A stretch of DNA of 64,000 bases from Phascolarctobacterium sp. (lineage in GTDB: Bacteria > Bacillota > Negativicutes > Acidaminococcales > Acidaminococcaceae), in the NCBI GenBank assembly GCA_030540395.1, contig JAUNWI010000003.1:95295-159294 (forward strand), written 5' to 3'. The first letter of the stretch is position 1, and each line of letters begins with the position of its first letter. A model generated the notes under the pieces. The model was not told the DNA's origin. It made no database searches and was given only the letters and a program-made list of their open reading frames with translations. Below, in pieces: positions 28,282-32,091 of this stretch. Position numbers and translations under genes: made by a program.

Positions 28282-31200
28282 ATGTTCAAGAAAAAACGCG
28301 CTTTGACAGCAGCCGTGCTCTTAAGCTGCTCCTTCTTTATGGCCCCCTATTATGCTCATGCTGAGGAAGAGGAACCAAGCTGCGACCATCCATCATATTA
28401 CATGCAAGTCACTGCCGACAGTCTCACCTATCAGTTTGATCTTTACGATGCTACTAACCATTCTGGTCCACACTGGCGTGGCGAATATACAACTGACGAT
28501 AATGGTCAAAAAATTAAAGAATATGCCACCTACAGAGACCTATTTACTGGTGAAAAGCAAGCTTTTGGCGATAGCATTGCTTATATTCATAACTTAATTA
28601 ATCCATCCGGGACTACAAACCCTACCATCAAGCTAGAGCTGCTTCCTGACAAGGACGCCAATGCGGCTGCCCAAAGTGACACTTACATCAAAAGGGACGC
28701 TACTGGCAAGCCCTCAACACAAATCAGTGATACTGAGCTTGCGGCAGTACTGCAAGGAAAATATCACCCCGAAGACAATGACATCGTTGCTGAAATAGAA
28801 GTAGACCTTGCACCTCCCGATGCCAATTGGTATATTGAAAAATTTCCGTCCCTCCCCAGCAATGGCACCGACAGCGACTATTACGGAACCATCACCCACG
28901 AAATGTTCCATGCTTTAGGTCTGGGAACATATATTAACAAAGACTACACTACTCACGATGTCACCTTTGGCACCACTGCTAATTATAAAGATGGAATATT
29001 AATGTCAAAATTAGTATTCAACAAGTACGAAATGGGCATTAGGGATGTTTTTGACAGAGTAGTGTATTATGAGGTAAAAAGCGATGGCACCAACGCGTAT
29101 TATGATACTCACCCCATCAATCCCAATGCTGATGATATCACCATCACTGGAGAACTCAAGAGCAGAAAAATAGTTCCTATCTCGTTACAGCGATTTCAAA
29201 ATCCTTCCTTTATAAAAAAAGATGACGAATTCTATGTTCTCAAAGGTGATGATGTTGGCACCAACAGTGGCACGTATTTTACAGGCGTAAACGTAGAGAA
29301 TGTACTTACAACTTACAATGCTAAGACAGGGAAAAATGAATTAGCTGAAATCGCTTGGCCTGACGGCTCCGAAGTTCAGCCGGTCCCTGGACTGCCCCTT
29401 AACGGTTACGAGGGTGCCGAAACCACTCCTGAACTCTCCCATATCGAGCTGCAAAATGTCAATATGAGTCACCAAAACTATCGCAACTGGTGCAACTTCA
29501 CGGAAGCAGAGCTGGCTATTTTGCAGGATTTAGGCTTTAATGTGGACCGCAGAGCATACTACGGCAAGTCCATTTATAACAGTGGCACAGTCGATGAGAA
29601 CGAAAATATCCATTATTTCACCTACGATAATAATAATGCCTTCAACAGCACCCAAATGCACGGCATCGGTCTGCATATTTATGGTAGCTATGTGGATGTT
29701 ACCCAAAAGGCCGCTTTAAATGCTGGTGGCGAATATGGTATTGGTATTCGCGTGGACGGCATGCGCAATAATGTTACTATTGATGAGGATATCACAGCCA
29801 ATAACATTGGTGGCAATGGCCTTTTAGTTGCTTACGGCAAGGAGCATGAAATCACCTTAAGTGCTGGCAATACTATTGAGGCTACCGGTGCTGATGGCGT
29901 AGCAGCTCGTTTTGACTTTGGCAGCAACGAATTAGGTGACCAAGCTGGCTACAGGGGCTCCTACATCAATGTAAAATACAACGACCCTAATGCCGATGGT
30001 GACGACGAAGATGAAGATGAAGAAAGCGTTGAAGGAGAACTGCTCTTGGCCAAAAGCAAATCTCAGGAAGAAATACAGGGCAGTTGGGTACAGGATGACC
30101 TGCCCGATGCCATAGACGGCGCACTTGTAGAAAACTTCAATGTAGCGGGCAAATTAATTGGCAATGAGGCTGCTATCTATATCTCTCCTAACGCCTATGT
30201 AAAGAATATCAACATTTTAGAGGGCGCTGAAATCACGGGCGACATTATTTCTGAATGGAATCCCAATGCCATTATTTATCAAAACGAGGATGCAGAAGAA
30301 TCTTTGGCCCCACTGCTGCCTGATGATGATGATGGTTTGACCCATTTGAATTTTGGGTATGCTAGTGATGCTAGTGGCAATTTACTTTTGAATGAACAAG
30401 AACAACTAGTAGCAGACGCAAATTATACAAAAGAGCTCAGCAATAATATCCTTGGCAAAGATAGTCTGGTTATAGACCTGTGGGCTGGTGAGCTCAAAAC
30501 CAGTGGCACCAACAATGTCAATATTGTGCATGTAGCAGATGGCGCCAGCACTCAATATACTAACACAGGCGATTTGACCATCAATAGCAGCCTTGTTGTT
30601 AAGGGCACGTTTGTTAACGAAGGCACCTTGCAGACAAGCTTTGATGAGGATGGCAGAAGCATGGAGATTTCTGGTAGTGGTAACGCATATCTAACAGAAA
30701 CTGCTAATGGTAAGTTTGTTCTCAATGCTGAAGAAGGCCTGTATAAGGATACGACTACAATTTATCTCATCAATCATATTGCGGGAGATCCAACAGTGGA
30801 AATCAATGCTGATAATCTGCTAGTAAACTCTAACTCTGCGACCTTAAAAATGACCGCAGAAGTTGACGAATATACTAAGAATATCACCATCAGTACTGTC
30901 CGTGATTATACACCATTTGCAGGCACAGACGCAGAAGGTCAGTTAGCAATTCAGCTAGCTGAAAAGGCTTCTGCTTTGGCAGGAATTGAGGAACAAAATC
31001 TCAGCGAATTGGACCAAAAATGGGCGAACCTGCTTGCTGGCATGGGCTACAACGACAGCACCGGTGCCACCGCTAAACAGGCCATGAAGGCACTGACACC
31101 CCATGTATATAATAGCAGTGCACAGGCAACCTTGAACACTCACACCATGCTGAACAATTTGAACATGCTGGGTAATTTTAGCAACAACATTCCCGCAGCC

Positions 31201-32091
31201 CGCACGGGCGGCGGTCGTGGTCCCGCTGCGGACGACACTCCCAAGCACAACAGCTGGCGCAATATTGTGGTACCCTTCTCCAGCTATACCGACCAACACA
31301 ACGGCGTCTCCAGCTACACCAACCACAACAGCGGCGTTTTGGGAGCCATGGAGCGCACTCTGGACGATGGCCTCACCCACGGCTATCACGCAGCAGTGAA
31401 CCATCAATCCACCTCCAGTGCTAGCCAACGCATCAAGGGTGAAGGCTTCTACCTTGGCACCCACGCTAGCTACGCTCCCGCTGACTGGAAGGGCTGGCAA
31501 GTATTTGGCAGTGCTCGACTGGGCTTAGAAAACATGCGCAGTCGTCGCAGTTTAGCCCTTGGCGGCGGTAGCTTTGGCAGCAGTGATGCCGACTGGACCG
31601 GCTTCAGCGGCAGCTTCACTGTGGGCACCGCCTTGGAAAAAGAGCACGGCGTTGTCAAGAGTGGTCCCTTCGCTGCTTTGGGCTACAGCTTCGCCCATCG
31701 CCCTAGTGTGGACGAGCACGGCGGAGGCATTCCTGCCCACTTGGATGGCGCAACCTACGACTCCTTGCAAACGCAGCTGGGCTATCGCCTCACCACTGCT
31801 CCCAAAGCCTTGGACAACTACGACAGCACCAAGTGGCAAGCTCACGCCTCCGTTGCATGGAACCATGAGCTCTTGAACGACAATGGCTCCACTGATTTTG
31901 CCCTCGAAGGCTTGTCCAAGTCCATAAATGACAAAACCGCTGATTATGGTCGCGACAGCATGTCCGTCGCCGCTGGAATTACCTTTAAAACACCGAAAAA
32001 GCTCGATGTTGGTTTAACTCTCGGCAGTGACATTTATCGCAAAGGCGGCTCTAGCGTTTATGGCAAAGTGAAATTCGAGTGGAAATTCTAA
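28282..32091 (+). CDS. Autotransporter (type Va) with HExxH Zn-metalloprotease passenger
   Basis: Start at MFKKKR after GGAGG; signal peptide ending AHA; HEMFHALG; C-terminal beta-barrel ending KFEWKF. Confidence 0.88.
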   Translation: MFKKKRALTAAVLLSCSFFMAPYYAHAEEEEPSCDHPSYYMQVTADSLTYQFDLYDATNHSGPHWRGEYTTDDNGQKIKEYATYRDLFTGEKQAFGDSIAYIHNLINPSGTTNPTIKLELLPDKDANAAAQSDTYIKRDATGKPSTQISDTELAAVLQGKYHPEDNDIVAEIEVDLAPPDANWYIEKFPSLPSNGTDSDYYGTITHEMFHALGLGTYINKDYTTHDVTFGTTANYKDGILMSKLVFNKYEMGIRDVFDRVVYYEVKSDGTNAYYDTHPINPNADDITITGELKSRKIVPISLQRFQNPSFIKKDDEFYVLKGDDVGTNSGTYFTGVNVENVLTTYNAKTGKNELAEIAWPDGSEVQPVPGLPLNGYEGAETTPELSHIELQNVNMSHQNYRNWCNFTEAELAILQDLGFNVDRRAYYGKSIYNSGTVDENENIHYFTYDNNNAFNSTQMHGIGLHIYGSYVDVTQKAALNAGGEYGIGIRVDGMRNNVTIDEDITANNIGGNGLLVAYGKEHEITLSAGNTIEATGADGVAARFDFGSNELGDQAGYRGSYINVKYNDPNADGDDEDEDEESVEGELLLAKSKSQEEIQGSWVQDDLPDAIDGALVENFNVAGKLIGNEAAIYISPNAYVKNINILEGAEITGDIISEWNPNAIIYQNEDAEESLAPLLPDDDDGLTHLNFGYASDASGNLLLNEQEQLVADANYTKELSNNILGKDSLVIDLWAGELKTSGTNNVNIVHVADGASTQYTNTGDLTINSSLVVKGTFVNEGTLQTSFDEDGRSMEISGSGNAYLTETANGKFVLNAEEGLYKDTTTIYLINHIAGDPTVEINADNLLVNSNSATLKMTAEVDEYTKNITISTVRDYTPFAGTDAEGQLAIQLAEKASALAGIEEQNLSELDQKWANLLAGMGYNDSTGATAKQAMKALTPHVYNSSAQATLNTHTMLNNLNMLGNFSNNIPAARTGGGRGPAADDTPKHNSWRNIVVPFSSYTDQHNGVSSYTNHNSGVLGAMERTLDDGLTHGYHAAVNHQSTSSASQRIKGEGFYLGTHASYAPADWKGWQVFGSARLGLENMRSRRSLALGGGSFGSSDADWTGFSGSFTVGTALEKEHGVVKSGPFAALGYSFAHRPSVDEHGGGIPAHLDGATYDSLQTQLGYRLTTAPKALDNYDSTKWQAHASVAWNHELLNDNGSTDFALEGLSKSINDKTADYGRDSMSVAAGITFKTPKKLDVGLTLGSDIYRKGGSSVYGKVKFEWKF

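Follow-up and report, generated by a model that had tools for sequence, protein, structure and literature searches.

Gene and domain architecture

The window analysed here is a stretch of 64,000 nucleotides from a Phascolarctobacterium sp. genome (assembly GCA_030540395.1, contig JAUNWI010000003.1, positions 95,295 to 159,294 of the forward strand), in which an autotransporter gene with a putative protease head has been characterized in silico. The open reading frame spans 28237..32091 (+) with ATG 28282 as its functional start, and the product of 28282-32091 consists of 1269 residues. This start, already proposed in an earlier note on the sequence, is backed by the ribosome-binding site located seven nucleotides upstream and by the homologs, which begin at the equivalent Met. 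The best explanation of the product, and one regarded as probable, is a type Va autotransporter whose head, a zinc endopeptidase, represents a metzincin-clan family that no database has yet curated.

The domains are arranged in the order signal peptide, head, stalk and barrel (Table 1). The note had called the protein an autotransporter. The features agreeing with one of type Va are the following: (i) a match to the PF03797 barrel over aa 1003-1246 of 99.1 bits, above the curated cut-off of 26; (ii) a predicted Sec signal peptide, MFKKKRALTAAVLLSCSFFMAPYYAHA, placed before EEEE; (iii) an aromatic residue at the C-terminus (...EWKF). The upper subdomain of the head contains N-terminal beta-hairpins, a backing helix (aa ~91-106), strands including a conserved NAxAxS, and the active-site helix. 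Conserved islands have been identified within the variable insert that follows: GLRD (with D255), FY, GxYFTG and VPGLPxNGxE. The stalk gave no Pfam match; in the structural model of aa 27-500, which ends within the stalk, DSSP assigns a regular series of short strands starting at aa ~427-500.

Table 1. Features of the autotransporter locus (window coordinates) and the evidence for each
Feature	Position	Strand	Evidence
Shine-Dalgarno sequence GGAGG	28270..28274	+	7 nt before ATG 28282
Sec signal peptide, aa 1-27, AHA end then EEEE	28282..28362	+	A25 and A27 94-99% conserved; 65% identity to that of the paralog
Protease head, upper subdomain, aa 28-213	28363..28920	+	DSSP of the AlphaFold2 model; HHalign match of aa 84-215 with the N-subdomains of bacterial M8 and M10
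Zinc motif HEMFHALG (H206, E207, H210, G213)	28897..28920	+	Translation; family conservation
Variable insert, aa 214-383, HExxHxxG to distal His	28921..29430	+	Family spacing; alignment
Distal block ELSHIELQNVNMSHQNYRNWCNFTEAELAILQDLGFNVD: H387, M395, H397, helix C with E408, D416, G418	29431..29541	+	Conservation; HHalign
Invariant GLHIYG (G463, H465, Y467, G468), head-stalk junction	29668..29685	+	Alignment
Beta-rich stalk of the passenger, aa ~471-950, a probable beta-helix	29692..31131	+	DSSP strands; paralog alignment
Pre-barrel linker THTMLNNLNML, aa 953-963	31138..31170	+	Conservation of the Asn pair
Autotransporter barrel PF03797 (aa 1003-1246) to ...EWKF and stop	31288..32091	+	Pfam
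Tandem paralog, 805-aa autotransporter without protease head	32380..34797	+	Open reading frame; Pfam; alignment

Zinc motif and distal block

The stretch 28888-28920 translates to TITHEMFHALG, which puts HEMFH at 28897-28911, and 29431-29475 translates to ELSHIELQNVNMSHQ, with the codon of the distal His at 29440. H206 and H387 are separated by 181 codons. These positions and this distance are the ones the note had reported; the Met, which it had set about ten residues past the distal His, lies 8 residues past it.

Conservation was counted in 248 family representatives aligned to the family hidden Markov model (HMM). H206, E207 and H210 are each kept in 247 sequences and G213 in 245, while H387, H397 and D416 are present in all 248. 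E408 is found in 247, and E410 in 245 with Asp in the remaining three; helix C residues E408, D416 and G418 have been listed as invariant. H465 is kept at each of the 245 non-gap positions. Position 395 is occupied by Met in 215 sequences (87%), by Leu in 24 and by Gln, Glu or Ile in nine. Since the zinc and distal residues are kept across the 248 representatives, the motifs do not arise by chance. Conservation identifies H206, E207 and H210 as the predicted catalytic residues. From the distal block, the most divergent members retain just xH-(6-8 aa)-M-(S/T/G)-H.

The HExxHxxG motif lies on the active-site helix (model residues 174-186), as in metzincins. Position 216, three residues past the Gly, is Thr, Ala, Ser, Cys or Val and never His or Asp, so that the contiguous third ligand of the classic metzincin motif is absent. 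The third zinc ligand must therefore be distal, and the candidates are the two invariant His residues flanking the Met, H387 and H397. The first of these is most likely the ligand, as judged from the sequence. M395 would then form the Met-turn, and H397 may take the place of the Tyr switch: M-S-H397 parallels the M-S-Y of the serralysin-type sequences in the M10 comparison set. In several metzincin families the Tyr of this turn lies close to the zinc and is known as a “tyrosine switch” (PMC12237041). The distance from HExxH to the SH pair varies from 94 to 230 residues across the family, with an insert of 170 residues here; provided that H387 is the ligand, this corresponds to the long stretch that separates the Gly from the third His in M8. 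Other possible ligands have been considered as well. E389 and Q398 were rejected, being variable among divergent members, and D255, kept in 234 of the 248 sequences and replaced by Asn, Ser or Val in 11, was down-weighted for that variability.

Position of the head within the metzincin clan

No Pfam or NCBIfam model, Peptidase_M8 included, matched the head at E<=10, whether the whole protein or aa 28-470 was searched, and a single-sequence search of the PDB sequences gave no similar entry. A profile built from 20 sequences returned nothing, or marginal matches at the zinc helix alone, from Pfam, NCBIfam and the PDB sequences. The matches of the profile searches in the PDB were nearly all metzincins (myroilysin 0.003, astacin 0.007, serralysin 0.013, EcxA 0.016, and matrix metalloproteinases) and spanned the zinc helix only; leishmanolysin was not listed in either profile search of the PDB sequences. 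PF01457, the leishmanolysin model, had no match at E<=10, let alone above its threshold, in the protein and 52 relatives, and none in 301 genomes (its own and 300 of the phylum), with a control genome positive. The sub-threshold Pfam matches of family members comprised Astacin, M10, Reprolysin, M66 and M57; M8 was never one of them. PF00413 was found below its threshold in four of 33 members (best E 0.005), and the M10 motif is interrupted in the family.

Profiles were then compared with HHalign. The comparison sets were bacterial M8 proteins (PF01457-positive and annotated “leishmanolysin-related zinc metalloendopeptidase”), bacterial M10 proteins and astacin proteins. Small profiles (33 against 5 sequences) gave a match of 23 columns only, and larger profiles were used thereafter. 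The family aligned to bacterial M8 with a value of 92.1% (E 6e-7; the 106 columns run from the backing helix as far as the zinc helix), to bacterial M10 with 95.6% (E 1.2e-8, 104 columns) and to astacin with 75%. The yardsticks were 94.7% for M8 against M10 and 97.4% for M10 against astacin, so the values of the family are comparable to that of M8 against M10 and indicate homology at the level of the clan. Within the metzincin clan, the family is as far from M8 and M10 as M8 is from M10; M8 is not a nearer neighbour than M10, the E-value being lower for M10.

A second alignment to M10, collinear with the first and gapless over 33 columns, covers the distal block. It places L-S-H387 on the L-x-H of the third zinc ligand and S-L-M395 on the S-I-M of the Met-turn, with a His-to-Met spacing of 8 in both, and EAELAxLQD on helix C. 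Three of 200 column shuffles scored as high as this alignment (19.3). M395 is the proposed Met-turn residue, and helix C is present. Helix C, with its QDLGY, is the sole part more similar to M8 than to M10: the match to M8 (LAxxQDLGYxxD) scored 27.2, which none of the 200 shuffles reached (best 17.4), and the spacing from the Met to DLGY is 21 in both the family and bacterial M8. The spacing from the His to the Met is 6-8 in the family and 11 in the bacterial M8 proteins.

These results bear on the possibility that the head is a divergent true member of peptidase M8 (leishmanolysin/GP63), for which the chance is judged small. The split HExxHxxG...H...M layout, the M8-like helix C with its shared spacing and its clear excess over the shuffles, and the HHalign value to M8 speak in its favour. 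They are outweighed by the lack of PF01457 matches in the protein, its relatives and the genomes, by the absence of leishmanolysin from the PDB profile matches and from the top structural matches listed (see below), by a slightly better HHalign result to M10 (M8 and M10 scoring alike against each other), and by the differing His-to-Met spacing and the insert, 94-230 residues as opposed to about 60. The earlier note had proposed a leishmanolysin-like metzincin. Of this, the metzincin type holds, with HHalign values of 92-96% and a split motif in which a distal Ser-His is followed by Met, and the membership in M8 does not. On these alignments the head is M8-like in layout without being M8.

The structure predicted by AlphaFold2 for aa 27-500 (474 residues) reached a predicted local distance difference test (pLDDT) of 89 and a predicted template modelling (pTM) score of 0.89, and that of a compact Desulfovibrio homolog 87 and 0.90, respectively. 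Along the chain, the model shows a backing helix, strands, the active-site helix, the insert, an irregular loop with SH...MSH, and a C-terminal helix, and the models agree with the metzincin order described in PMC12237041. In a Foldseek search with the compact model, the top 21 PDB matches all belonged to M10 (catalytic domains of MMP-3, MMP-13 and karilysin), with probabilities of 0.3-0.63, E-values of 0.05-0.3 and a template modelling (TM) score of about 0.38 on the target; these were followed by ADAMs, adamalysins and meprin, and then by thermolysin-like enzymes. In the fold comparison, which the note had proposed as a check against M8 structures, leishmanolysin was missing from the top 50 matches listed for either model.

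Several observations weigh against the proposed metzincin head. None of the Foldseek matches reached significance (the lowest E-value was 0.048, and TM scores on the target were 0.37-0.40), and the 474-residue model returned noise plus weak matches to M1 and M61 aminopeptidases (probability 0.15-0.18). The M10 alignment of the distal block is weak when taken alone (E 0.05). M395 is exchanged for Leu, Gln, Glu or Ile in 13% of members, and the ligand assignment is ambiguous because H387, H397 and H465 are all invariant.

The aminopeptidase matches would suit a gluzincin- or aspzincin-type site, in which an acidic residue (E408 or E410 of the C-terminal helix, or the D255 of GLRDxxG) acts as the third ligand and the distal His residues are structural. 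Deuterolysin, which appears among the weak PDB profile matches, and the strong conservation of E408, E410 and, to a lesser degree, D255 point the same way. Against such a site stand the G213 that directly follows HExxHxx, a mark of metzincins (PMC12237041), the Asn, Ser or Val found in place of D255 in some members, the preference of both HHalign and Foldseek for metzincins, and the alignment of the invariant H387 and H397 with the third His and Met-turn of M10. An acidic third ligand is accordingly deemed improbable, and a metzincin head with a distal His ligand is retained as the preferred reading.

Genomic setting, distribution and comparison with known systems

The gene is followed by a paralog in tandem. 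The two proteins share 65% identity in the signal peptide and 41% over aa 496-1269 of the protease, and the head is absent from the paralog. Since signal peptide, stalk and barrel recur in this headless protein, the protease is a separate module at the N-terminus of an autotransporter chassis shared by both, and the pair suggests that the head has been gained or lost as a unit. Both genes are the sole members of the + strand within a run of - strand genes. Upstream lie proA/proB, obg and the genes of a deaminase and an ABC-F ATPase; downstream follow a two-component pair of the LytS/LytR type, a sigma-70 factor and mntH. No accessory gene was evident. The GC content drops to 0.43 over the protease head (28001-30000) and the passenger of the paralog (32001-34000), compared with about 0.52 in the flanking housekeeping genes; the dips are compatible with horizontal acquisition or with a composition rich in Asn, Lys and Thr.

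A number of smaller features have been noted along the protein. The mature N-terminus at 28363-28401 (aa 28-40), EEEEPSCDHPSYY, is reminiscent of a latency segment of the cysteine-switch type. Near relatives show P-D-C-G-H there; among 115 relatives H36 is conserved in 74% and C34 in 34%, and with a pLDDT of about 52 the placement of aa 28-40 is of low confidence. In the stalk, an acidic low-complexity insert, DGDDEDEDEESVEGE, is present at 29977-30036 (aa ~566-585) and missing from the paralog. The linker before the barrel recalls the Asn-Asn self-cleavage site of the serine protease autotransporters of Enterobacteriaceae (SPATE). Its two Asn are kept in 56% and 44% of 209 relatives, and self-cleavage of that type was dropped on account of this low conservation.

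The same genome carries a second protease autotransporter on another contig (C2, 3884-7063, locus L074). Its head is intact (VIVHELAHALGM) and its distal block reads SFLSHQ, with Leu in the position of the Met; its barrel stops after about 100 of the 255 positions of PF03797, and this copy is probably decaying or not exported. Such a truncated barrel could be taken to mean that the head is not a working protease and represents a binding or adhesin module with an ancestral motif, or an unexpressed gene. Many autotransporters are adhesins. This reading is judged very unlikely, as 247-248 of the 248 divergent members, which come from five phyla, retain each catalytic residue, a degree of conservation that implies selection on catalysis, and as the copy in the window is intact and preceded by a good ribosome-binding site.

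A word-indexed search recovered 221 relatives. With an exhaustive search, the family grew to at least 410 clusters (50% identity), most of them 1100-1300 residues long. In public annotation the relatives are called “autotransporter domain-containing protein” only; annotation is blind to the head because the domain is absent from Pfam and NCBIfam. Among the named genome contigs, the carriers in Negativicutes are Phascolarctobacterium, Megasphaera and Selenomonadaceae, and those outside the class comprise Sutterella, Duodenibacillus, Aphodousia, Desulfovibrio, Bilophila, Succinivibrio, gut Alphaproteobacteria and Akkermansia. All the named carrier contigs come from gut, faecal or rumen assemblies, and they cover at least five phyla. 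Within the class of the window, 23 of the 301 species-genomes have the domain, as do 11 of the 93 genera; in its own genus 6 of 22 genomes are found among the matches listed, with one to six copies that often stand in tandem. One Sutterella metagenome-assembled genome (MAG) of 3.2 Mb holds about 12 copies on contig C148 and others, four of them in tandem on one contig (loci L023, L035, L037, L039, L042 and L043 among them), which is a striking lineage-specific expansion. A domain confined to gut and rumen diderms, patchy in its occurrence and locally amplified, shows the pattern expected of a horizontally traded factor for host interaction or nutrient acquisition.

Two loci filed under Lachnospiraceae and Paludibacteraceae MAGs (L004 and L006) have heads with 44-45% identity to the query and a signal peptide of the Phascolarctobacterium type (LTxAVLLSCS). 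They are probably binning errors, as the monoderm Lachnospiraceae have no use for an autotransporter. In an Akkermansia MAG (locus L024) the frame is open without an ATG 150-270 codons upstream of HExxH, and the start may be non-ATG or mis-set.

The proposed mode of action combines the elements described above. The Sec signal peptide (aa 1-27) would direct the protein to the periplasm, where a barrel of the 12-strand type (aa ~1003-1269) would enter the outer membrane and the passenger be threaded outward, so that the beta-rich stalk (aa ~471-950) presents a zinc endopeptidase head of about 440 residues on the cell surface. In the head, H206 and H210 of the active-site helix are predicted to coordinate zinc, with E207 as the general base; the helix would end at the clan-invariant Gly213, and the 170-residue insert would precede the third ligand H387, the Met-turn Met395 eight residues on, and the C-terminal helix EAELAxLQDLGY. 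H397, two residues past the Met and in place of the Tyr of the serralysin “MSY”, probably aids zinc binding or stabilisation of the transition state. Extracellular host or dietary proteins (mucus, immunoglobulins, nutrient peptides) would be the likeliest targets, by analogy with the serine-protease autotransporters and because the family is found strictly in the gut and rumen.

Sutterella has been linked to the degradation of immunoglobulin A (IgA). A more far-reaching idea, speculative and on balance unlikely, is that the family forms a surface protease system of asaccharolytic gut diderms (Sutterella, Phascolarctobacterium, Desulfovibrio/Bilophila, Akkermansia) cutting particular mucosal proteins of the host, secretory IgA or mucins for example, in which the tandem arrays of up to about 12 copies would be a repertoire of specificities or antigenic variants and the His in place of the Tyr switch would define a mechanistically distinct subclass of metzincins. 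The family in any case offers a testable candidate for extracellular proteolysis by abundant and poorly understood commensals.

Both metzincins and autotransporters are familiar; their combination, and the uncatalogued family of the head, are the new part. In the literature searched, no description was found of a metzincin passenger on an autotransporter or of the family itself. A close counterpart in design is found in the protease autotransporters, SPATE among them (for instance Hbp, EspP, Pic, IgA1 protease and the subtilase type), which consist of a signal peptide, an N-terminal protease, a long beta-rich stalk and a PF03797-type barrel, and which are surface or secreted proteins of mucosa-associated bacteria. 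The overall design is the same in the family. However, the heads of the former are serine proteases (S6/S8), whereas that of the family is a predicted zinc metzincin, and the Asn-Asn cleavage site of SPATE is not clearly conserved.

The IgAse of the human gut commensal Thomasclavelia ramosa (igalysin, M64), a large metzincin of several domains whose zinc motif is unusual, acts on host IgA (PMC12237041). It resembles the family in being a divergent metzincin of a gut bacterium. It differs in its HExxHxxxGxxD motif with Asp as the third ligand, and in its Gram-positive, cell-wall-anchored setting without an autotransporter; no match to the family in sequence or fold appeared in the searches made.

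The matrixins, serralysins and karilysin (M10, PF00413) are the best HHalign partner, and share the gapless distal block, the His-to-Met spacing of 8 and an MSH resembling MSY. In contrast to the family, with its insert of 94-230 residues and its His for Tyr after the Met, their motif is the contiguous HExxHxxGxxH.

Leishmanolysin/GP63 and its bacterial relatives (M8, PF01457) have in common with the family the HExxHxxG motif, a large insert, a distal third His and a Met/Leu turn (both as proposed for the family) and the DLGY helix, together with an HHalign value of 92% over the N-terminal subdomain and the Met-to-DLGY spacing of 21. Leishmanolysins are distinguished by the long insertion that parts the Gly from the third His, and in one natural GP63 group Leu replaces the Met (PMC11957388). 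The differences relate to the PF01457 match, lacking in the family, the length of the insert (94-230 against about 60 residues), the His-to-Met spacing (6-8 against 11), the GxHW and ELMTG signatures and many conserved Cys of GP63, which the family does not possess, and the carrier: M8 enzymes are held by a glycosylphosphatidylinositol anchor or released as small secreted proteins, and the family is borne on an autotransporter. The head would provide a second, independent split metzincin zinc motif beside that of leishmanolysin.

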